DNA of 64,000 nt. It comes from Minisyncoccota bacterium (GTDB taxonomy: Bacteria > Patescibacteriota > Minisyncoccia > Phycocordibacterales > PALSA-1337). A program made the position numbers and the translations under genes. Positions 5,397-50,574 of this stretch are shown piece by piece. The DNA lies in NCBI GenBank assembly GCA_041663145.1, contig JBAZRG010000002.1, forward strand, positions 94,618 to 158,617, in the 5' to 3' direction. The notes under the pieces are model-generated. The model had not been told where the DNA came from. It was given only the letters and a program-made list of their open reading frames with translations, and made no database searches. Each line of letters opens with the position of its first letter. Within the stretch, counting starts at the first letter, position 1.

Positions 5397-5879
5397 ATGG
5401 ATTATAGAGATATACACAAATCGAAAACAGTGCGAGGAATCCTAATAGGATTGGGAGTTGCCGTCCTTATCCTGGTCATTTTTCAAGCAGGCATGGTTGC
5501 GGGTTATCACAAAGCTAGTTTCAGCGCGCGATTTGGTGACAATTTCGAGAGAAATTTTATTGATCCTCGAGAAGGAGACTTTGGTGGAAAATTTCCCGGT
5601 CCGGGCATGCCGGGCGGACATGGAGCCGTGGGAGAGATTGTTAGTATCATTCTTCCACGAGTCGTTGTAGCCGGCCCTGATAATTTGGAAAAAACTGTTC
5701 TCGTTGGTACGTCGACAATTGTTCGAGAATTTCGAGATGAAATCACCGCAGATCGACTCAAGGTCGGTGATTTTGTAGTAGTTCTTGGTAATCCGAATGA
5801 TAAAGGTGAGGTTGATGCAAAATTGATTCGTCTCATGCCTCCACCACCTGAGCCATCTGGTAGAGCCGTAAATAGATAA
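5397..5879 (+). CDS. hypothetical membrane-anchored protein
   Basis: N-terminal TM segment followed by Gly/Pro-rich and charged regions. No catalytic motif. Confidence 0.3.
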   Translation: MDYRDIHKSKTVRGILIGLGVAVLILVIFQAGMVAGYHKASFSARFGDNFERNFIDPREGDFGGKFPGPGMPGGHGAVGEIVSIILPRVVVAGPDNLEKTVLVGTSTIVREFRDEITADRLKVGDFVVVLGNPNDKGEVDAKLIRLMPPPPEPSGRAVNR

Positions 5880-18925: not shown

Positions 18926-20803
18926 ATGCAAAAACCATCACTCTGCTCAGTGGCAATATTTGTTGGTACGAGTTTGTTTCTAGTAGCACCATTTGTTCTC
19001 AGTAGTTATTTATCAGAACACCTCATTCTGATTTCAATAATATTTGGACTTTTCGGATTACTTTTGACACTGCATTTCAAAAAGTCTATCCAAAAGACTT
19101 TGTCAAATAAACTAGCGTTTGTGTTTCTGATTTGTTTGCTAGTTTTAATTCCATTTTCAATCACAAAACTATCTTCAGTCACTCATTTATTTTGGTGGTT
19201 ATCATATATAGCTGTATTTTTGTCGGCACAATGTCTCGTTTTTGATAAAAAACTATTGCAAATAGGATCAAAATTATTTGTGGCAATTACCGCTGTATAC
19301 GCAGTCATCATGTCATACCAGTTTATATTGTCTGGCCTTAGTTCGTATACACGACTGGTCGGATTGTCCGCTGGACACAATATATATGGTGGGTTTCTTA
19401 TTTTGCCTTTTTTCTTGAGTATTTATTTAGCAATTGTGGAAGAAGAGCGATGGAAGAAAATATCCTGGATCATTGCCGGAGCAATCATCTTTTCCAATAT
19501 CATCCTGACTTTTTCCAGAGGGACATGGCTTTCCATTATTATAGGAATAATTGTTTTTGCTGTCATATTTCGTGAGAAATTTCTATGGCACGATGTTTTG
19601 AACTCTTGGAAGACATACGTCTCTATATTAGTCTTGGCAGGAATGATCACAGGTGGTCAATGGGTTATGGCTAGAAACAACACATCAAAGATTGACTCCA
19701 GACGTCTGGCAGAAGTAGAGATATTTTCCAATGAAGATGCTGATAGCAATGCCTTTACTGCCAGATTGTTCTATTTCAAAGATGCACTCAATACTTTCAT
19801 TGAACGTCCCATATTTGGTTTTGGTGGGGGATCGTATCAGTTTGCTCTACGCATGAATAAGCAAGATCCGAATTATGGTTCATTCGCCGACCCACACAAT
19901 TGGTTTTTGCGCATGCTAGTGGAGAATGGAATATTGGCAACGATTATATTTATAGGATTTTTATTCTCTTTGTTTTGGGGTATTGGCAAATCTATTTTGC
20001 GTACGGAAAAGACCGATAAAAAAACCAACTGGTTGAATATGGTCATATTTATCGGATTACTCTCATATCTTCTTCATGGTCTCATGGATATGGATTGGAA
20101 TTATCCGGTTCTGCTTTTGATTTTCTTTTCTTTTGCCGGCGCTTTGTATGGCAACACGCTTTCCGAGAGTGATGTGAAAGAATCCAGAAGAAAATATTTT
20201 TCACTGTGGATCAATGTCATTCTGATATTTGTAATGATTATCTCGGCCATGATTGCTGTCCAAATGTTTCGCTCTGATAGTGCCAGGAGGGACGGCGATT
20301 ATTTCTATTTTGCAAAAGAAGACAATGATTCGGCAGTGGTGAGTTATTATGATGCTATCAAGTTGAATCCCTACAATTCGGCTCCTTGGTACAGTCTTTG
20401 GAATGTCTATATGGGTGAGAACAAGTTCAATTATGCAGAGACGGCTATAGGGAAGGCCATATCTCTATTTCCGACAAATGGTACATATTACGGCGCTTTG
20501 GCGACAAGCTATGCTTCATCTAGTAATCCACAGGGTTACCATGATGCTTTGGTTAAATCCATAAAGTATTTTCCAGCTAACAATCTTATAAATTATGTGA
20601 AGCTCGTGCATTATGATTTTGTTCAAAAAGATTATAAAGAAGCATTGGAATATCTTGACCGAGTCATACCGATTTATACGCATTATCAAACGGTTTTATG
20701 GTACAAAAACGACCCAAACTCAGCGATGATGACTCAGAATCTCGCGACTCTGAAGGAGTACAAAACTAAGATTGAAAAAATTACAGGCAAGAAGTTGGAG
20801 TAG
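18926..20803 (+). CDS. O-antigen ligase-like (Wzy_C/PglL-type) polytopic membrane protein with C-terminal TPR region
   Basis: At least 10 predicted TM helices. NIILTFSRGTWLSIIIGII is the Wzy_C loop region. The C-terminus has TPR-like repeats (YYDAIKLNPYNSAPWYSLWNVY). I moved the start to the ATG at 18926 so that it clears the pilin terminator. Confidence 0.6.
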   Translation: MQKPSLCSVAIFVGTSLFLVAPFVLSSYLSEHLILISIIFGLFGLLLTLHFKKSIQKTLSNKLAFVFLICLLVLIPFSITKLSSVTHLFWWLSYIAVFLSAQCLVFDKKLLQIGSKLFVAITAVYAVIMSYQFILSGLSSYTRLVGLSAGHNIYGGFLILPFFLSIYLAIVEEERWKKISWIIAGAIIFSNIILTFSRGTWLSIIIGIIVFAVIFREKFLWHDVLNSWKTYVSILVLAGMITGGQWVMARNNTSKIDSRRLAEVEIFSNEDADSNAFTARLFYFKDALNTFIERPIFGFGGGSYQFALRMNKQDPNYGSFADPHNWFLRMLVENGILATIIFIGFLFSLFWGIGKSILRTEKTDKKTNWLNMVIFIGLLSYLLHGLMDMDWNYPVLLLIFFSFAGALYGNTLSESDVKESRRKYFSLWINVILIFVMIISAMIAVQMFRSDSARRDGDYFYFAKEDNDSAVVSYYDAIKLNPYNSAPWYSLWNVYMGENKFNYAETAIGKAISLFPTNGTYYGALATSYASSSNPQGYHDALVKSIKYFPANNLINYVKLVHYDFVQKDYKEALEYLDRVIPIYTHYQTVLWYKNDPNSAMMTQNLATLKEYKTKIEKITGKKLE

Positions 20804-20816
20804 GTGCTAAGAATTA

Positions 20817-20916
20817 GGAACCTTCCGGAAATAACTTCCCTCCCGTGCTCCGAGGATGGGTAGCCAGCGATTAGCGCCCGCAGGAGACGGGAGGGAAGTT
20901 ATTTCCGGAAGGTTTC
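20817..20916. repeat. long palindromic hairpin element, family B copy 1
   Basis: 30-bp near-perfect inverted repeat (GGAACCTTCCGGAAATAACTTCCCTCCCGT) around a loop containing CCGAGGATGGGTAGCCAGCGATTAGCGCCCGCAGG. It lies exactly between two convergent stop codons (20803 and 20917). Confidence 0.6.
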
Positions 20917-22224
20917 TTAGTAAGCGCCTCTTCCAAATAGTACCGCTGGAATTGTTTTTAGGATTATTACGGAGTCTAGGAGCATGCTTTGGTTGCAGAC
21001 ATAGTAGAAATCATATTCCAAATTTTCGTGGAGGGGTATGTCTTTGCGTCCCAATATCTGCCACAAACCAGTTAGACCTGGCTTGGCTTTGAGGCGGATC
21101 TGTTGCCATGGTTCGTATTTTTTGACTATAAATTCCATTTCAGGTCTCGGACCGACCAAGCTCATATCTCCTTTGAAAATATTCCAGAGTTGAGGCAATT
21201 CATCCAAACTCAGTCGACGAAGAAATCTGCCTATTTTGGTAATGCGTGGATCGGTCTCATTTTGTGGAGCATATTCATAGAGAGTTGCTGTGCAATGCAT
21301 GGTTCTAAATTTCCAGAGTGTAAATGGTCTGCCATCTGATCCGATGCGTGACTGTTGGATGAGCGCTGGACCATTGGAATCAAGTTTGATCACGGCAGTT
21401 ATGATGAGCCAGAGTGGGGTGACTATTATCATTCCTGTTCCAGCTATGACTATGTCAATGATTCTTTTTGTGTACAAGTAAACAGTATTTGGTCGAACAT
21501 TCGGAGTGATAGAAGGTATATCGTCTATGTTGTTCAAGCGTATCTCTCCGGTAACTAGCCTGAAAGTGTCAAGAATCACTCTGAAACTGTGATGCTTCAG
21601 ATTTTGATCAGCCAATATTTTCATGACTCGCTCACGTCCGAGATATTCATCAGCAATGAATATGTCATCGGAGTTTATTGTGCGTAAGTACGTAGCGGTT
21701 TGAGGATCATTGAAATCTAGCTTGATGACAGATAGATTGGGAAAAACATTTTTGATCTGTTTTTCAATATCTTTTGCTCGATCGCCAGTGCCTATGATAT
21801 GCACATTGTCATCACCATCTTTTTTACCATTCCGCCTATACCTGAAATATCCGAAACGTGTAAGAGTGATGAATATGACTGTGAACAATACAGTCAAGAA
21901 CAATACTCCGCGAGAGAAATCATATTTTATGGCATAAATGACGGCTGTTATGATAAGTGTCCAGACGACCAATGCTTTCAAGACTGTAAATATCCTAGCC
22001 GACAACTCTATATTGCGGACACGATAGAGTCTAAAGGCGGAGAAAATGATTATAAGCAGGACGGAAGCGATGATAAAGGAAAGTAAGTAGCCACCTTTGT
22101 CAAACGTAATCTTCCCAAAGTATGGATTCAGCAGGGAAGATTGGCGGAGAAAGAGGGAAAGAAGGAAGGTGAGGGTGAGGGAAATAGAATCTATGGTAAT
22201 TAGTTTTATGCGATCTATTTGCAT
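20917..22224 (-). CDS. undecaprenyl-phosphate sugar phosphotransferase (bacterial sugar transferase, WbaP/EpsB family)
   Basis: The C-terminal catalytic domain (LIQQSRIGSDGRPFTLWKFRTM ... DELPQLWNIFKGDMSLVGPRPE) is recognisable. The N-terminal 4-5 TM helices fit the family. Confidence 0.8.
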   Translation of the reverse strand: MQIDRIKLITIDSISLTLTFLLSLFLRQSSLLNPYFGKITFDKGGYLLSFIIASVLLIIIFSAFRLYRVRNIELSARIFTVLKALVVWTLIITAVIYAIKYDFSRGVLFLTVLFTVIFITLTRFGYFRYRRNGKKDGDDNVHIIGTGDRAKDIEKQIKNVFPNLSVIKLDFNDPQTATYLRTINSDDIFIADEYLGRERVMKILADQNLKHHSFRVILDTFRLVTGEIRLNNIDDIPSITPNVRPNTVYLYTKRIIDIVIAGTGMIIVTPLWLIITAVIKLDSNGPALIQQSRIGSDGRPFTLWKFRTMHCTATLYEYAPQNETDPRITKIGRFLRRLSLDELPQLWNIFKGDMSLVGPRPEMEFIVKKYEPWQQIRLKAKPGLTGLWQILGRKDIPLHENLEYDFYYVCNQSMLLDSVIILKTIPAVLFGRGAY

Positions 22225-26972: not shown

Positions 26973-27743
26973 ATGAAATACGTGACTATTATAATTGTCA
27001 CATATAATTCCAGTCAATTTATAAATAATTGTTTAAATTTTTTGTTGTCTTCGGACGCACTTTCGATAAGTAGGATCATTGTTATAGATAATAATTCAGT
27101 GGATGGTACACAAGAATTATTGCAAAAATTCAGCAATATGTCTGAGATCACTATTATCTATAATATGAAAAATGTTGGGTATACGAAAGCATGCAATCAA
27201 GGCATAATGATGTCTTCGAGTAAATATGTCTTAATCCTCAACCCCGATATACAAGTAGGTAATGGATCAGTAAAGAGATTGTATGAATATATGGAAAGAT
27301 ATGATGTGGCAGTTGTGGGAGGAAAACTTATGTATTTTGACGGCAAGCTCCAGTACTCATGTCGTACATTTCCCAGTCCATTAACTTTTTTATATAGAGC
27401 TTTACAGATTGAAAATAATAAGACGATAAGGACACATTTGATGTACGATTTCGATCATGGGGAACCTCGTGATGTTGACTGGTTACTCGGTTCTTGTCTG
27501 ATGATTAGGCGAAAAGTTTTAGATGAAATCGGTTTTCTTGATGAGAAGTATTTTATGTATTATAGCGATGTTGAATTTTGTTGGAGAGTCCATAAAAATA
27601 ATTGGAAAGTGACATATGTACCTGACTCTGAAATGTTTCATTATTATCAGAGACAAAGTGCTAAAGGTGTACCTGGTTTTCTCGCATTATCGCACTTAAG
27701 GAGTGCTGTTAGGTTTTTTGTCAAAAGATACATTAAAGCTTAA
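26973..27743 (+). CDS. glycosyltransferase family 2
   Basis: VTIIIVTYNSSQFINNCLNFL ... VIDNNSVDGT ... LILNPD show the GT2 pattern. Confidence 0.7.
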   Translation: MKYVTIIIVTYNSSQFINNCLNFLLSSDALSISRIIVIDNNSVDGTQELLQKFSNMSEITIIYNMKNVGYTKACNQGIMMSSSKYVLILNPDIQVGNGSVKRLYEYMERYDVAVVGGKLMYFDGKLQYSCRTFPSPLTFLYRALQIENNKTIRTHLMYDFDHGEPRDVDWLLGSCLMIRRKVLDEIGFLDEKYFMYYSDVEFCWRVHKNNWKVTYVPDSEMFHYYQRQSAKGVPGFLALSHLRSAVRFFVKRYIKA

Positions 27744-35180: not shown

Positions 35181-35182
<2 letters not shown>

Positions 35183-35332
35183 GCTCGGTGAATATTGTTC
35201 CTCAACGACTCGCAATGCGATTTGAACCCCGAACAAATTGCCCGTATATCAGTAGTTCCATCTGCTGATATACGGTTGCAATTTGGAGTGGGTGACCTTG
35301 CGAGGAGTTGAGGAACAATATTCACCGAGCTC
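35181..35332. repeat. structured palindromic element, family A copy 1 (152 nt)
   Basis: 26-bp perfect terminal inverted repeat (GAGCTCGGTGAATATTGTTCCTCAAC) plus an inner hairpin (CGTATATCAG/CTGATATACG). It begins inside the ligA stop codon. Its core is identical to that of the element at 45288-45438. Confidence 0.65.
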
Positions 35333-38922: not shown

Positions 38923-39087
38923 AAATAATGAAGGAAGTAAAAAGCATCTCTGAATTAGCCATAGAAGCAATAATAGCGAGCGTTGACGAATAACTTATTG
39001 TATGATAGGGTAATTTTGGCTTTCGGACTATATTTTTATTGATTTTTGACAGCCAAATATAGTAAACAGAAAACAAAAAGGAACGTG

Positions 39088-41757
39088 ATGATAACGCCAC
39101 ATGACTATCAGTGCAATCCGATTGTCATGATCGGTGAGGCACTGAAAGCTTCAAAAAAGGCTTTGGTTGTGATGGCGACTGGCACGGGTAAAACTGTTGT
39201 CGGCGCGTTCGCAATCAAAGAACCTTTGAAGCTGGGTCGAGGATTATTCCTCTGCCACAACAACCGTATCCTTGAACAATCCATGAAGCAATTCGCGGAA
39301 GTTCTCGGGCCGGAAGTGACCCTCGGGGTCTTCCATGGTGAGAAGAAACACTGGGACGAAGTAGATATCCTCTTTGCGTCCTTTCAGACCTTTGTGGACT
39401 GGAAGCATGCATTTTTCGAGGATGAATTCCGCTTCGTCATAGTTGACGAATCCCACCATAGTCAAGCAATTACATTCAAGGAGGTCATCGAATACTTCAA
39501 GCCGGCTGAGCTTTTGGCTCTCACGGCAACACCCGATCGAATGGATCAGAAAGACATCCGTGAGATCTTCGGGCAGGAAGTGGTGAATATAACTCTTGAA
39601 GAGGCGATCGGTAAAGGGTGGTTAGCTCAAGTTGAGTATCACCTTGTCACCGACAACCTCAATCATTGGGAACTGAAGAAGCTCGCTCGTGAAGTGCTGG
39701 AGGTGGGAAAGAAAATTTCCCTCAAACAGCTTAACGAAACGATCTTCATCAAGGCTCGTGATGAAAAAATTGCTGAAAAAATTCAAAGCTACGGGAAGAA
39801 AAAGACGATCGTCTTTTGCGAGAGCATAGTTCACGCAGAGAACTTTCAGAAGTTCCTTCCCCGATCCAAGGTCTACCACTCAAAAGTAAGCATTGGAAAA
39901 AATGAAGAAACCTTAAATGAGTTTCGCAGTGGCGAGTGCCAATGCATCCTAGTCGTTGATAAATTCAACGAAGGTCTCGACATTCCCGATGCCGAACTGA
40001 TTGTATTCCTCCGTTGCACCGACTCTAAAACAGTCTACCTGCAACAGCTCGGTCGTGGACTTCGCAAAACCCTGAATAAGGATAAAGTGATTGTTCTCGA
40101 CTTCGTCGGTAATACGGAACGTGTCATGATGATTCGTGAGATGATCGAAAAGGTTAAGTTCTTCACTATAAACTGGGCGGAGCTCGAAAGAAACCCGCTT
40201 CATGTCCAAGGTGACGGATTCGATTTCGTCTTCACGGATGAACTGATTGACTTGTTCAGTGTTCTCCAACGTCTGCAACTACGATACATCTCGGACGTTC
40301 CCGAACTCCTCGCGGAGTATTCGGATAAAAACGAACTGTTGCCAAGTGAGGTAGTTGCCGGAACGATGAGGAGGCTTTGGTGGGTATGCTCCAAGTGTGG
40401 GCATGAATGGCTCACCAGCGGTTCACACCGCCTTCGAGCCAAATCAGGTTGTCCAGCTTGCCTTAATAGAGCTGTCACCTCCAAAAACAACCTTGCCGTC
40501 ACGCATCCCGAGTTAGCTAAAGAATACTCTCCGCGGAATCTTCTGCCAGCGACGCAAATAATCGCTGGTTCGATGAAGAAACTGTGGTGGAAGTGTTCGA
40601 AGCCAGAATGTGGACATGAGTGGCAGGCAACCGGAAATGCTCGTCTAAGGGGCGGCAACATTGTTGGCTGTCCAGCATGTTGCAATAGGGTTGCAGGTGC
40701 CAAAAACAACCTTGCCGTCACGCATCCTGATCTGGCTAAAGAATATTCGCCACGGAATCCTCTGCCGGCTACAAGCTTTGTCGCTGGTACAAACAGGAAA
40801 CTGTGGTGGAAATGTCTGAAACCAGATTGTGGATATGAATGGCAGACAACTGGGGCAAATCGAGTGTCGGGAAAGGGTTGTCCAGCCTGTTGTAACAGAG
40901 CGGTAACCCCAAAGAACAACCTCGCTGTCACGCATCCAGATCTGGCTAAAGAATATTCGCCACGGAATCCTCTGCTGGCAAATCAAATCGTTGCTGGCTC
41001 GACGAAGAAACTATGGTGGAAATGCTTGAAACCAGAATGTGGACACGAGTGGCAAGCAACTGGGTTAAGCCGAGTGTCAGCAGGAACTGGCTGCCCAGCA
41101 TGCGCAGGTAACGTTGTCACTCCAAGAAACAACCTGACTGTCACCCATCCTGATCTGGTTAAAGAGTACTCACCGAAAAATCTGTTGCCCGCGACACAAG
41201 TTAATCCTGGGACAAACAGAAAGCTTTGGTGGAAGTGTTCAAAGCCGGAATGTGGACACGAGTGGCAAGCTTCATGTTACCATCGAACCAAGGGTGTTGG
41301 GTGCCCAGCTTGTGTAAACAAGGTCGTCACTACAAAAAACAACCTAACGGTTACGCATCCGGAATTGGCTAAGGAGTATTCACCAAAGAATTCGTTGCCA
41401 GCGACACAGGTCGTTGCGGGAACAAACAAAAAACTCTGGTGGAAGTGCTCAAAGCCAGAATGTGGGCACGAGTGGCACATCGAAGGAAGTGCTCGGGTTC
41501 AAGGTTATGGTTGTCCGGCGTGTGTAAACAAGGTCGTCACTACAAAAAACAACCTCGCTGTCACTCATCCGGAGTTGGCGAAAGAATATTCACCACGGAA
41601 TCCTCTGCCAGCAGATCGAATTATTGCCGGTTCAACGAAGAGGCTCTGGTGGGTTTGCTCCAAATGTGGGCATGAATGGCTTACAAGTGGTTCACACCGC
41701 GCTGTAAATAAATCGGGTTGTCCAAAGTGTTGCAATCGTGGGAGAAAAACTCCTTAA
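39088..41757 (+). CDS. SF2 DEAH-box helicase (type III restriction res-subunit-like) fused to seven tandem zinc-ribbon repeats
   Basis: The SD sequence AAGGAA lies 5 nt before the ATG at 39088. Helicase motifs are present: I (MATGTGKT), II (VDESHH), III (LTATP) and VI (QQLGRGLR). Seven repeats of about 53 aa follow, each with WW-x-C-x-K(PE)CGHEW...GCPAC. Confidence 0.8.
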   Translation: MITPHDYQCNPIVMIGEALKASKKALVVMATGTGKTVVGAFAIKEPLKLGRGLFLCHNNRILEQSMKQFAEVLGPEVTLGVFHGEKKHWDEVDILFASFQTFVDWKHAFFEDEFRFVIVDESHHSQAITFKEVIEYFKPAELLALTATPDRMDQKDIREIFGQEVVNITLEEAIGKGWLAQVEYHLVTDNLNHWELKKLAREVLEVGKKISLKQLNETIFIKARDEKIAEKIQSYGKKKTIVFCESIVHAENFQKFLPRSKVYHSKVSIGKNEETLNEFRSGECQCILVVDKFNEGLDIPDAELIVFLRCTDSKTVYLQQLGRGLRKTLNKDKVIVLDFVGNTERVMMIREMIEKVKFFTINWAELERNPLHVQGDGFDFVFTDELIDLFSVLQRLQLRYISDVPELLAEYSDKNELLPSEVVAGTMRRLWWVCSKCGHEWLTSGSHRLRAKSGCPACLNRAVTSKNNLAVTHPELAKEYSPRNLLPATQIIAGSMKKLWWKCSKPECGHEWQATGNARLRGGNIVGCPACCNRVAGAKNNLAVTHPDLAKEYSPRNPLPATSFVAGTNRKLWWKCLKPDCGYEWQTTGANRVSGKGCPACCNRAVTPKNNLAVTHPDLAKEYSPRNPLLANQIVAGSTKKLWWKCLKPECGHEWQATGLSRVSAGTGCPACAGNVVTPRNNLTVTHPDLVKEYSPKNLLPATQVNPGTNRKLWWKCSKPECGHEWQASCYHRTKGVGCPACVNKVVTTKNNLTVTHPELAKEYSPKNSLPATQVVAGTNKKLWWKCSKPECGHEWHIEGSARVQGYGCPACVNKVVTTKNNLAVTHPELAKEYSPRNPLPADRIIAGSTKRLWWVCSKCGHEWLTSGSHRAVNKSGCPKCCNRGRKTP
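40306..41745 (+). repeat. about 159-bp tandem coding repeats (7 units) encoding zinc-ribbon modules
   Basis: The repeats are near-identical at the nucleotide level (CTTGCCGTCACGCATCC.GA..TGGCTAAAGAATA.TC.CC.CGGAATC recurs). The first and last units resemble each other most closely. Confidence 0.8.
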
Positions 41758-42480: not shown

Positions 42481-42554
42481 TGTTGCGGGGAGCGGAATCG
42501 AACCGCTAATTTTCAGGTTATGAGCCTGACGGGTTACCGTTACCCTACCCCGCG
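42481..42554 (-). tRNA. initiator tRNA-fMet (CAU)
   Basis: The reverse complement reads CGCGGGGTAGGGTAACGGTAACCCGTCAGGCTCATAACCTGAAAATTAGCGGTTCGATTCCGCTCCCCGCAA. It has the C1xA72 mismatch and closely resembles the E. coli tRNA-fMet acceptor arm. CCA is not encoded. Confidence 0.8.
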
Positions 42555-42673
42555 ATGATATAGACGTATTGGAGCTATTCTGGCATAAAATGGTGTAGCG
42601 TGCAAGAGGATAAAAAGGGTAGAATACATAACGTGTTTGCATAGAGATTCATTTTCGTCTATTGTAATCATAC

Positions 42674-42750
42674 GTCGGCGTAGCTCAGGTAGTTAGAGCG
42701 AGGGACTCATAAGCCCTAGGTCGCAGGTGCAAGTCCTGCCGCCGACACCA
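42674..42750 (+). tRNA. tRNA with CAT anticodon (elongator Met or, more likely, lysidine-modified Ile2)
   Basis: GTCGGCGTAGCTCAGGTAGTTAGAGCGAGGGACTCATAAGCCCTAGGTCGCAGGTGCAAGTCCTGCCGCCGACACCA. Its T-arm resembles E. coli ileX (GGTCGCTGGTTCAAGTCCAGC). CCA is encoded. Confidence 0.7.
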
Positions 42751-42796
42751 TTTCACACTTTGTTTTTTGGCCGAGTTCTGGTACATTAATGTCCAT

Positions 42797-42870
42797 GCGC
42801 CCGTAGTTCAGTTGGCTAGAACGCTCCCCTGTCACGGGAGAGGTCGTGGGTTCGAACCCCATCGGGCGCG
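42797..42870 (+). tRNA. tRNA-Asp (GUC)
   Basis: GCGCCCGTAGTTCAGTTGGCTAGAACGCTCCCCTGTCACGGGAGAGGTCGTGGGTTCGAACCCCATCGGGCGCG has a clean cloverleaf with anticodon loop CTGTCAC. Confidence 0.9.
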
Positions 42871-43230
42871 CTTGACAAACCCAATAGGTATGATATAATA
42901 GTAGGGTAAGATTGAAACAGATAGATTTTGACAGTCAAATAGGCAAAGGGATTTAATGTATGAAGACAATAGAATTTTTTCTGGTTTGTCGTGCTGTTGG
43001 TAAGCATGGAAACGTAGCACGAGTTGCAATCCATGTTCTCGCTCTCTTAACGAGACACGAGGATTGGGATCGCGCAGTGGCCGGAATTCGTCGCGAATTT
43101 TCGCGATAGAATTCCACTCAATACGAAGAGGGGTAAGAGACTTGAAAAAACTTACCCCACTTTACTGAGCCTATAAAAATTGAAATTTGTAGGCTCACAG
43201 AGTGACGATGTTTTTAAATACCATAATATG

Positions 43231-43258
43231 ATCCCCAAATACGTGGGGATTTTTTGTT
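43231..43258 (+). terminator. rho-independent terminator
   Basis: ATCCCCA AATACG TGGGGAT followed by TTTTTTGTT. It ends a hairpin-rich 360-nt stretch that lacks an ORF. Confidence 0.5.
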
Positions 43259-43433
43259 ATAACCATTCACCACAACAAAATACCTCAAGTTGTTTTTGTG
43301 TCGATATTCATATATGATTTCAAACATTCGCGTTGGATCATTGAAATCATTTAGTGTACAGAAGTAAATATAAGCCGATGTAGCTGTCTTGGTAGCTCTG
43401 ACGCAAATCATTTAGTGTACAAAAGTAATACAA

Positions 43434-43699
43434 GCCGATGTAGCTCAGTTGGTAGAGCACGCCATTGGTAGGTCGTAAGACCCTGCCCATTTCGGTGGTA
43501 ACGCCGAGATGAATCCCGAATAACGGTTAAAGTCCCGAGAGTAGTCGAGGGATAAGACCGTGGCGTTTCGATTTTATCGAGACGCCCGAACGACTGACAA
43601 GGGTCTCCAAACGTTGGAGAAAGATACAGTCTAGTCCTCCCGTAAGGTGAGGTGTAAACGAATGGCGAGGTCTCCGGTTCAATCCCGGACGTCGGCTCC
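43434..43699 (+). tRNA. tRNA-Thr (GGU) interrupted by an intron of about 191 nt in the anticodon loop
   Basis: 5' exon: GCCGATGTAGCTCAGTTGGTAGAGCACGCCATTGGT. 3' exon: AATGGCGAGGTCTCCGGTTCAATCCCGGACGTCGGCTCC. The exons join into a perfect cloverleaf with anticodon loop TTGGTAA. Confidence 0.75.
43470..43660 (+). ncRNA. group I (self-splicing) intron in tRNA-Thr anticodon loop, no internal ORF
   Basis: The exon ends in U and the intron ends in G. GCCGA about 30 nt into the intron can pair with the exon TTGGT as P1. AAGATACAGTC matches the group I S/P7 element consensus AAGATATAGTC. CGAACGACTGACA resembles the R element. The size is similar to the small Azoarcus-type tRNA introns. Confidence 0.65.
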
Positions 43700-43735
43700 T
43701 TGTTTGTTAAAGTGTGTTTCGATATACTCCTTCTA

Positions 43736-44194
43736 ATGCCGATGCCAAGAAAGATTCGTAATATGTGTCTTATGTGCGGGAATGAGCCAGCCCGTCCATC
43801 ATACAAATATTGTTGTAATTCGTGTCAGCTTGAGTTTCAGCATCTTGAATATATTCGTAAATGGAAATTAGGAGAATTAAATGGACTTAGCAGTATTGGT
43901 ACAGTCTCTGTTCATGTGAAAAAGTACTTGAGAGAGAAATATGGTAACAAATGTATCCTATGTGGCTGGTCTGTAGTAAATACAAAGACTGGTCTGGTTC
44001 CACTAGTTGCAGATCATATTGACGGCAATTGGCGAAACAATTATGAGAGTAACTTGCGTCTCATTTGTCCAAATTGTGATTCGTTAACAGCAACTTATGG
44101 TGGTTCCAATAAAGGTAACGGTAGAACAGGGAGAGTTGTTAGCAAAAGAGTCCTTGAAGGAAAAAAGTTTGTATTGCTTTCTACGCCGATGTAG
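43736..44194 (+). CDS. HNH endonuclease (free-standing, between the two tRNA-Thr genes)
   Basis: CMCGNE...CNSC zinc knuckle followed by CILCGW...LVADHIDGNWRNNYESNLRLICPNCD, an HNH core. The start may be the ATG at 43736 or 43763. The stop codon lies inside the following tRNA. Confidence 0.7.
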   Translation: MPMPRKIRNMCLMCGNEPARPSYKYCCNSCQLEFQHLEYIRKWKLGELNGLSSIGTVSVHVKKYLREKYGNKCILCGWSVVNTKTGLVPLVADHIDGNWRNNYESNLRLICPNCDSLTATYGGSNKGNGRTGRVVSKRVLEGKKFVLLSTPM

Positions 44195-44260
44195 CTCAGT
44201 TGGTAGAGCGCCACTTTCGTAAAGTGGATGTCCCCGGTTCGATTCCGGGCATCGGCTCCA
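44185..44260 (+). tRNA. tRNA-Thr (CGU)
   Basis: GCCGATGTAGCTCAGTTGGTAGAGCGCCACTTTCGTAAAGTGGATGTCCCCGGTTCGATTCCGGGCATCGGCTCCA. CCA is encoded. Confidence 0.9.
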
Positions 44261-45265: not shown

Positions 45266-45461
45266 AGACCCCGACATAATGTGGAATAGCTTGGTGAACA
45301 TTGTTCCGAAACGACTCGCAATGCGATTTGAACCCCGAACAAATTGCCCATATTAGAGTAGCTCCGTCTACTCTAATATGGTTGCAATTTGGAGTGGGTG
45401 ACCTTGCGAGGAGTTGAGGAACAATGTTCACCAAGCTAGCGGGAACATTATGTTGGGGTCT
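45266..45461. repeat. structured palindromic element, family A copy 2 (about 196 nt)
   Basis: It begins 10 nt after the prfB stop. The core 45288-45438 is shared with 35181-35332. It has an extra outer stem, AGACCCCGACATAATGT/ACATTATGTTGGGGTCT. Confidence 0.65.
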
Positions 45462-49047: not shown

Positions 49048-49052
49048 GGCAG

Positions 49053-49146
49053 GTAACCCCGGCAACATCATGTCCCGTAGTAACCGAGGATTGTGATTAG
49101 CGAAGCGCCCGCAGGTTACGGAGGGACATGATGTTGCCGGGGTTAC
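49053..49146. repeat. long palindromic hairpin element, family B copy 2
   Basis: 24-bp perfect stem (GTAACCCCGGCAACATCATGTCCC) plus a GTAACC/GGTTAC extension. The loop CCGAGGATTGTGATTAGCGAAGCGCCCGCAGG shares CCGAGGAT...GATTAGCG...CCCGCAGG with 20817-20916. It starts 6 nt after the pyrG stop. Confidence 0.6.
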
Positions 49147-49244
49147 GTGATATTTGCCAAATAGACATATTTGTGTCAGACTACAAATAGAACGACAATG
49201 ACGTCGTATCTAGAAAGGAGGTTGACATAAAAAGACTTTATGAC

Positions 49245-49953: not shown

Positions 49954-50574
49954 TCACATGATCTGTTGCCATTTATATTGTGGACCACGAGTCGACAGCA
50001 GTTTTAGCAGTCTCTCATAGGATTCTCGTGGAGCCCATCCTATGAATCGATGGATCTTTCTCGCTTTCCAGATTGGTGGAAATTGAGAGTTTTGTTCAGA
50101 GCTTGTACATTCTGGTTCATCCTGATCGCTCGAGAGCCAAAAGAAGCTTTCATCCTCCAAGTCGTCATTTTCCTGTCTGAGATTGGCTCTCAGAATGCGT
50201 TTTGTGGCCAATAGTTGTGGCTCCGCCGTCAGACTGAATGGACCACCAATATTGTTACCGTCTTCTTGAACCAATTTGAATAGGTTAAACTTATCGCTCT
50301 GGCTGGAGTGACAGAGTCGGTTGATCTGAATCGATACCGTATGGTGGTACAAAATGACTCTCTTTAAAATAGCGTCGTATTCCAGCGAGGCAAATCCTTC
50401 GGTTACTAGAGTTATTATTTGGTGGAATGCCTGCGGTCGCTGTGCGACCTCGGCATCGATAGTGGGGATGAATCTCCTCAGCCATTTAATCGTCTCTATG
50501 AATTGCGAAGAGACAGTGTCTTGTTCCGCGCATGCGTTTGTACTCATAAGTTTGTTTTTCAAACTGCATTTCAA
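49954..50574 (-). CDS. hypothetical protein (206 aa)
   Basis: ORF only. No motif recognised. Confidence 0.3.
   Translation of the reverse strand: MKCSLKNKLMSTNACAEQDTVSSQFIETIKWLRRFIPTIDAEVAQRPQAFHQIITLVTEGFASLEYDAILKRVILYHHTVSIQINRLCHSSQSDKFNLFKLVQEDGNNIGGPFSLTAEPQLLATKRILRANLRQENDDLEDESFFWLSSDQDEPECTSSEQNSQFPPIWKARKIHRFIGWAPRESYERLLKLLSTRGPQYKWQQIM

Follow-up and report, generated by a model that had tools for sequence, protein, structure and literature searches.

How can two hairpins of about 100 nt share the loop at their tip when the stems that carry it have nothing in common, and why do both stand directly behind stop codons? The question was raised by a reading of the sequence alone, in which two long hairpins were described at gene ends of a contig from a Minisyncoccota bacterium, one between two convergent genes and the other behind pyrG. 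This original prediction held that a conserved loop on freely varying stems is not the pattern of a simple terminator, and named as candidates a recognition site for a recombinase or an RNA-binding protein, or a small mobile hairpin. Here we follow the two hairpins, called W1 and W2, and the family defined by their loop, called family B, through the window (the whole stretch of DNA that was analysed, 64 kb in length) and through public genomes and metagenomes. The two hairpins are built as follows.

20816-20917, plus strand: W1, whole hairpin, about 100 nt; its pairing can be extended to 20814-20919, including the stop codon of the convergent gene
20816-20843, plus strand: 5' arm of the W1 outer stem, specific to the site in sequence, pyrimidine-rich beside the tip (CCCTCC)
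20844-20851, plus strand: 5' side of the W1 inner stem, CGTGCTCC, with G20847 bulged; it pairs with 20883-20889 (GGAGACG)
20852-20882, plus strand: W1 core, GAGGATGGGTAGCCAGCGATTAGCGCCCGCA, covariance-model score 67.2 bits
20890-20917, plus strand: 3' arm of the W1 outer stem, purine-rich beside the tip (GGAGGG); its end meets the stop codon 20917-20919
49050-49149, plus strand: W2, whole hairpin, about 100 nt
49053-49076, plus strand: 5' arm of the W2 outer stem, 24 bp perfectly paired with 49123-49146
49077-49085, plus strand: W2 internal loop and inner stem; GTA lies opposite GGA (49120-49122), and GTAACC pairs with GGTTAC (49114-49119)
49086-49113, plus strand: W2 core, GAGGATTGTGATTAGCGAAGCGCCCGCA, of a short-core subtype, covariance-model score 51.1 bits

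An inverted-repeat scan and folding agree that two long hairpins are present where they had been described. The scan gives W1 arms of 31 nt that are 97% complementary (20816-20846 and 20887-20917) and W2 arms at 49050-49085 and 49114-49149, which include the perfect 24-bp part. As RNA, W1 folds at -72.2 and W2 at -66.0 kcal/mol, with z of about -10 and none of 200 shuffles equally stable; folding as DNA gives -43.9 and -39.2 kcal/mol. The loop pattern CCGAGGAT..GATTAGCG..CCCGCAGG has two exact matches in the 64-kb window, against 0.00 expected from shuffles. The shared loop stood in so far as it occurs exactly twice in the window, but its terminal CC and GG turned out to be base-paired and to form part of the inner stem; the unpaired conserved core, GAGGAT...CCCGCA, covers 20852-20882 in W1 and 49086-49113 in W2. 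BLAST comparison of the W1 arms with the W2 arms, and of the arms with the rest of the window, gave no similarity beyond chance words of 8-13 nt, and on this ground a role of the stems as guides or spacers for another locus was rejected.

The placement at gene ends was borne out as well, with 0-12 nt between the hairpins and the stop codons. W1 starts 12 nt past the stop (ending at 20803) of a Wzy_C/TPR gene, overlaps at its other end with the stop codon (20917-20919) of a convergent gene for a sugar transferase, and fills the intergenic gap between the two; W2, taken as a whole, starts 2 nt past the pyrG stop (49047). In agreement with the U-tract said to be missing from both copies, there is no T-run 3' of W1 or W2, and neither hairpin received a terminator-like site call. 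At the gathering score Rfam 15 recognises only tRNAs in the window, and a relaxed scan of W1 returned generic miRNA-hairpin noise far below threshold. The tRNA genes number five, four of them clustered (42483-44257) and one just downstream of the W2 region (50753-50823).

Searched for beyond the window, the loop motif recurs. We assembled 19 distinct B copies from pattern scans of public genomes and metagenomes, from tsaD orthologues fetched later and from covariance-model matches, and all of them come from Patescibacteria wherever the record names the organism. In a collection of one genome per species (185,579 species), the exact pattern was found in four copies in three MAGs, two of them labelled as Patescibacteria or Saccharibacteria and the third as 'uncultured bacterium' only; since the collection scans required the exact pattern, they underestimate both copy number and host range. 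A slightly relaxed pattern gave 24 stretches in metagenomes, among which 8 (7 distinct) are true long hairpins and the remaining 16 are chance matches in G+C-rich DNA without a hairpin. The pattern has no matches in the viral contigs of IMG/VR, the plasmids of PLSDB or the phages of INPHARED, on which ground a phage or plasmid origin of B was rejected. Copy number seems low, with two clear copies in 64 kb here and one or two per 20-kb locus elsewhere. The 31-nt core of W1 is identical in L003, L004, L012, L014, L019 and L027, making seven copies in different genomes, and the short-core subtype of W2 also occurs in the tsaD gene of L037, L044 and L045.

Read from the outside in, a B copy consists of a nearly perfect outer stem of about 20-30 bp that is different at each site, usually a purine-rich 3x3 internal loop (5'-GNA over GGA), and an inner stem of 4-7 bp that closes a core of 28-32 nt, GAGGAT-N-AGCGA(TT)AGCG-CCCGCA. 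The inner stem covaries, with two-sided changes in five of its six pairs (26 cells); none of 500 shuffles reaches its score, and slid controls are far lower. Within the core, a GCG/CGC mini-hairpin has undergone three one-sided changes, and a G·U pair was kept each time. The stems had been called completely different, which holds for W1 and W2, as they share nothing, but does not hold throughout the family: in the 19 copies, eight loop-proximal stem positions hold purines exclusively on the 3' arm and are rich in pyrimidines on the 5' arm, and beyond them follows a loose ATGTGTT-like stretch. In addition, L001 and L002, which belong to one genome, have arms in common. Just 5' of the inner stem, GTAG is found in 5 of the 19 copies (W2, L003, L004, L027 and L036), and GNAG or GNAA in most others.

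Intergenic copies are W1, W2, L001-L005, L009, L014, L019, L027 and L044:14841-14881. Most of them start about -3 to +16 nt from the stop codon of a co-oriented gene, and where the neighbouring genes are in tandem, four of five are co-oriented with the upstream gene. The copy at L044:14841-14881 (minus strand) is diverged and lies reversed downstream of an HSP20 gene; in its core, GAAAATGTAGCCAGCGATCAGCGCTTTGA, the closing GG/CC pairs have become AA/TT, a compensatory change. The window itself holds one further site that resembles the family.

50426-50457, minus strand: possible decayed B-like remnant, GATGCC GAGGTCGCACAGCGACCGCA GGCATT, 18.9 bits, rough E 0.001

This site is without long arms and lies in frame (AEVAQRPQA) in an unannotated 206-aa ORF (49954-50574) with no Pfam match; it could be what is left of a B copy, or coincidence, and the case is a weak one.

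The observations that carry the answer come from tsaD. In L012, a metagenome contig, a hairpin of 105 nt lies in frame within this gene, free of stop codons and adding about 30 aa to the protein between the GGHTELV and DDAVGEAF motifs. Altogether, tsaD carries B in L012, L034, L036, L037, L044, L045 and L047, and its core reads in several ways: forward in frame 1 as PRMGSQRLAPAG (L012 and L036), forward in another frame as SRGLEPAKRPQA (L045), reverse-complemented as PAGADRWLPILG (L034), and reverse-complemented in yet another frame as LRALRWSHSS (L037 and L044). The W1-type core is open in three of the six reading frames. With 12 relatives aligned and 120 Patescibacteria homologues inspected, the length of the TsaD loop ranges from 17 to 57 residues. 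Elsewhere among the TsaD homologues (P0121-P0240), the loop of P0148 and P0150 contains an insert peptide, RV.SERSEAERVTQD, from a diverged class-2-like core, and that of P0176 and P0207 a recurrent insert peptide SGGLASGGEAS. A spurious 78-aa ORF of the window (20856-21092, MGSQRLAPAG...) begins within the W1 core, and its peptide is part of the TsaD reading frame in L012. Outside TsaD, a search with concatenated core peptides gave no match to other proteins at E<=10, and a search with a 33-aa window peptide returned one irrelevant repetitive protein. Among the TsaD homologues, P0124 has no clear palindromic footprint at the DNA level.

The same gene shows the insertion in other states. L040 is the closest relative of L012 (four-fold sites 0.75 identical, against 0.45 between L012 and L034), and its tsaD has no insert; because L040 is insert-free and yet nearest to L012, B was cleanly lost there. 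In L042, remnants of the arms are kept and the core is gone. L012 and L034 agree in the inner stem, AATCC/GGATT, and in the outermost bases of the arms, and between the two the internal loop, inner stem and core are inverted as one block, which means that the B tip can flip between its arms. No duplicated junction bases are found in the filled and empty pair of L012 and L040, and no target-site duplication is visible at W1, W2 or L003. The PyrG of the window is 100% identical to a protein from a Candidatus Paceibacterota MAG. Relatives with 79-82% PyrG identity keep the order RF-ftsE-ftsX-pyrG, and a B hairpin is absent 3' of pyrG in these relatives.

That B is inserted DNA is shown by orthologous sites which are filled in some genomes and empty in others, and in tsaD it lies in frame within the coding region. 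Its in-frame presence inside this essential gene in other genomes marks it as inserted DNA and not a terminator, and the original prediction was right that a conserved loop on free stems calls for a special explanation. Among the candidates first proposed, it is the small mobile hairpin that the results favour, as the hairpin is absent at pyrG in relatives of about 80% protein identity and the in-frame tsaD copy is missing in the closest relative of one of the lineages that carry it. Absence from the same site in relatives without any footprint had been counted in advance as evidence against the idea; such absence was found, and it supports mobility and speaks only against a fixed host site.

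What is conserved in these insertions is the tip, and it is conserved as nucleotides. The four-fold degenerate sites of the tsaD lineages are saturated (0.27-0.45 identity), whereas the core is identical at 30 of 31 positions between L012 and L034 and again between L012 and L036, and at 27 of 28 between L037 and L044. Across 11 core codons there are no synonymous changes, and the core is read in three different frames; the constraint thus acts on the nucleotides, and constraint at the protein level was rejected. The arms tell which form of the nucleic acid matters. On the core-forward strand, the arm pairs comprise 525 Watson-Crick, 16 G·T and 2 A·C pairs, and copies that are reversed with respect to the host gene have 7 G·T and no A·C (6 counted, and 1 seen by eye in L044:14841-14881). 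This bias, reversed copies included, argues that the relevant form is one folded strand of fixed polarity, whichever way the gene is directed. The tip is therefore under strong purifying selection on its nucleotides, as a folded single strand with a polarity that is fixed regardless of the direction of the host gene. A replication-strand rule like that of IS200/IS605 is unsupported, as the core-forward strand has a positive GC skew in 11 loci and a negative one in 8.

The outer stem of the tsaD copies includes host sequence. The right arm of L012 ends in 16 nt, ACCCCTCCGTTTTGCT, that spell T-P-P-F-C-Y and align to S-S-P-F-K-Y of the insert-free L040; nothing in insert-free proteins corresponds to the K-Q-N-G-G encoded by the 16 nt that pair with them in the left arm. 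The native F-x-Y motif lies in the outer right arm in L012, L034, L036, L037, L044 and L047, in the form P-F-x-Y in most lineages and L-x-Y in L047. In each case the codons are those of the lineage itself, and they pair with a perfect inverted copy whose residues are without counterpart in insert-free homologues. One side of the outer stem is thus native to the host and the other repeats it in inverted orientation, which implies either an inverted duplication of the flank or concerted evolution of the arms with the palindrome spreading outwards. Stems derived from the host would explain why they look unrelated at different sites, and they fit W1, where the stem occupies the whole intergenic gap and reaches the stop codon. 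All tsaD copies may descend from one ancient insertion, in which case the host-derived stem would be a single event followed by concerted evolution. Insertion of the tip into long hairpins that already existed was considered and rejected, as the window has no others except family A, and the outer stems are not terminator-like.

Family A had been regarded as distinct from B, and is represented in the window by two elements.

35181-35332, plus strand: family A copy 1, palindromic, 152 bp with arms of 35 nt, starting on the ligA stop codon and lying before gatC
45287-45438, plus strand: family A copy 2, 152 bp, between a release-factor gene and ftsE

The family has a conserved centre, its apical hairpins (35239-35278 and 45345-45384) differ by fully compensated changes, and a relaxed Rfam scan gave no match to it. 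The separation from B is not complete, as L009 carries a B core on arms that are homologous to the family A arms of the window (p<0.0005), from which it follows that the two families share arm ancestry or exchange modules. Other long hairpins with stems of 24-33 bp are found in relatives (L030:8001-8118, also in L031 and L032; L033:5095-5201 and 5591-5734), with quite different loops of 44-80 nt and at other junctions of the ftsE-ftsX-pyrG block; several families of hairpin elements seem to circulate in this clade. The window also has a perfect 14-bp inverted repeat at 27080-27165, TGTTATAGATAATA, with a spacer of 58 nt, which is unrelated to families A and B.

Taking these results together, we consider it probable, at roughly 0.7, that B is a small non-coding palindromic insertion element of Patescibacteria, similar to the Rickettsia palindromic elements (RPEs) and to REPs, whose tip would be read by a trans-acting enzyme of single-stranded DNA. 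The tip would probably be the recognition structure of an enzyme acting in trans on folded single-stranded DNA, with a logic that may resemble that of HUH/Y1 transposases on REP or IS200 hairpins, or of IntI on attC. The arms might be kept perfect, and lengthened into the flanks, by intrastrand template switching or by inverted duplication. Copies would survive only where they do no harm, which in compact genomes would be right after stop codons, or else in permissive protein loops if they are in frame and free of stops; a hairpin at a gene end may incidentally protect the 3' end of the mRNA. Much less confidence attaches to any particular enzyme than to this overall picture, and no transposase or recombinase is found among the 18 of about 66 ORFs of the window that were annotated with Pfam. 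At the same time, the nucleotide conservation of the vertically inherited tsaD copy is unlike that of a purely selfish, decaying repeat, and points to a function at the locus or to repeated re-conversion.

Two further ORFs of the window are noted here. One, of 862 aa (53453-56041), contains a vault repeat and matches the shoulder domain of Major Vault Protein (E 1.3e-24); it lies where the window is G+C-rich (0.53 against about 0.42), as it is nowhere else, is unusual for Paceibacterota, and may have been acquired horizontally. The other (39046-41757) is a 903-aa SF2 helicase (ResIII/Helicase_C) fused to seven DUF4379 treble-clef zinc-finger repeats.

A narrower version of the insertion reading limits the mobile or selected unit to the tip of about 50 nt. 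The stem would then be made on site from host DNA by inverted duplication of a flank; alternatively, the tip would be directed to the apex of palindromes already present, in either case with no direct target duplication and with an enzyme that reads folded single-stranded DNA. The tip may in that case carry an indispensable function, which is suggested by its very long purifying selection inside an essential gene in either orientation. We regard this version as rather unlikely in its entirety.

The main rival, to which we assign a low probability, sees B as a structured cis-acting RNA of 3' UTRs, with the stem presenting a tip that binds a protein or controls processing or stability of the mRNA. 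It accords with the covariation of the inner stem and the G·U pairs kept after one-sided changes in the mini-hairpin, with stem mismatches on the forward strand that favour G·U by 16 to 2, with a start at about -3 to +16 nt from the stop of a co-oriented gene in most intergenic copies, and with co-orientation to the upstream gene in four of five tandem contexts. However, the same element is found inside the tsaD coding region in three frames, and it is antisense in L034, L037 and L044, where the core is conserved equally and the wobbles are still those of the core-forward strand. The reversed copy behind HSP20 (L044:14841-14881), the patchy occurrence at orthologous sites and the lack of an Rfam match are further difficulties. 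The protein recognition site that had been among the first candidates keeps one half of its meaning: as a reading of the tip it is reasonable, while an RNA-binding site on the host mRNA fits poorly, the tips in antisense being equally conserved.

Second in rank, and likewise improbable, is a non-mobile site of the host chromosome within a palindrome, which might be a folded single-strand recombination site such as attC or dif, a nick site resembling oriT, or a place where a nucleoid or segregation protein binds. Conservation of the core in place while four-fold sites saturate, in both orientations and inside an essential gene, would be expected of such a site, as would strand-specific folding, and variable stems around a constant element at gene ends recall attC. 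Nevertheless, the attC R and L boxes are absent, the 3' ends reading GGTTTCTTAG and GGGTTACGTG and not GTTRRRY, and neither a cassette array nor an integrase is seen in the annotated parts of the window. Moreover, the element is patchy even between sister lineages (L012 and L040), and the presence of the exact motif in 3 of 185,579 species genomes is hard to square with a core chromosomal function.

Finally, almost no weight can be given to an unusual factor-independent, possibly bidirectional terminator of these bacteria: its position directly 3' of stop codons, the convergent gap that W1 spans entirely and the extreme stability of the hairpins would suit it, but a T/U tract and a terminator-like call are lacking, the conserved 31-nt loop is left unexplained, the element occurs in frame in an essential gene, and large hairpins with this loop number two in 64 kb with about 66 ORFs. 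A canonical intrinsic terminator, with a short G+C-rich stem, a small loop and a U-tract, was rejected for W1 and W2, where no T-tract is present.

B was compared with known small repeats and recombination sites of bacteria. REPs are hairpins of 20-40 nt with small loops and stems conserved within a genome, present in hundreds of copies, and their RAYT is a Y1 HUH transposase. Like REPs and BIMEs, B forms imperfect hairpins at gene 3' ends, would have a folded single strand as its active form and tolerates G·T, and the GTAG or GNAG just 5' of the inner hairpin in several copies may correspond to the conserved 5' GTAG of REPs; it differs from REPs in its large conserved loop and variable stems.

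With attC sites, B shares the position at gene 3' ends, the imperfect palindrome, stems that vary by copy and, probably, the recognition of one folded strand. What attC conserves is not the loop: it keeps the outer R''/R' boxes (RYYYAAC and GTTRRRY) and extrahelical bases, and stands in arrays beside intI. At the stem base of B the R boxes are absent, the sequences reading AGGAACC...GGTTTCT and GTAACCCC...GGGGTTAC, and beside it neither a cassette array nor intI is seen, the neighbours being housekeeping genes with the conserved synteny RF-ftsE-ftsX-pyrG.

Terminal inverted repeats are conserved in Correia elements (CREE), ERIC and SPRITE-type MITEs, which also duplicate their target site (TA in the case of Correia). 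Like B, they are small and palindromic, lie at the borders of genes and are transcribed together with them. B has neither conserved terminal inverted repeats nor a target-site duplication, and assignment to the classical MITEs was rejected for this reason. Correia elements can also invert in place, and forms with different centres exist (PMC10969869); the flipped tip of B is comparable to the former, and the occurrence of both centres, A and B, on related arms (L009) to the latter.

The RPEs come closest in function. They are short non-coding palindromic repeats that lie between genes and also in frame in unrelated housekeeping genes, where they are read through as a peptide; they are of about 150 bp, whole elements can be aligned within a family, and they occur in reduced, host-dependent genomes without an identified transposase (PMC10969869). 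B shares with them the palindrome, intergenic as well as in-frame copies, reduced host-dependent genomes and the lack of an identified transposase. Judged by what would define such a class, B has both a stop-free palindrome in frame in a conserved protein gene and intergenic copies. At the same time, B conserves only a tip of about 45-55 nt, its outer stem is specific to the site, it belongs to another phylum, and its copy number is apparently much lower. We therefore name the RPEs as the functionally nearest known elements, in the sense of a functional class and with no claim of similarity in sequence.

Full-text searches of a collection of papers found no description of small palindromic repeats in Patescibacteria. 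Family B shows that such elements exist in these bacteria of the Candidate Phyla Radiation, in spite of their tiny genomes, and that they are able to settle in frame in essential genes. What is usual in small repeats is turned round here, conservation being found in the centre and lacking at the ends. The tsaD series amounts to a natural time course of one insertion, filled, flipped, changed in subtype, decayed and cleanly lost, and can be used for the study of how a palindrome is kept perfect, how it extends into host sequence and which enzyme reads its tip. In practical terms, B hairpins distort gene calls through an extra peptide, spurious ORFs such as the one within W1 and false terminators, and they account for part of the variation in length among the proteins of Patescibacteria.
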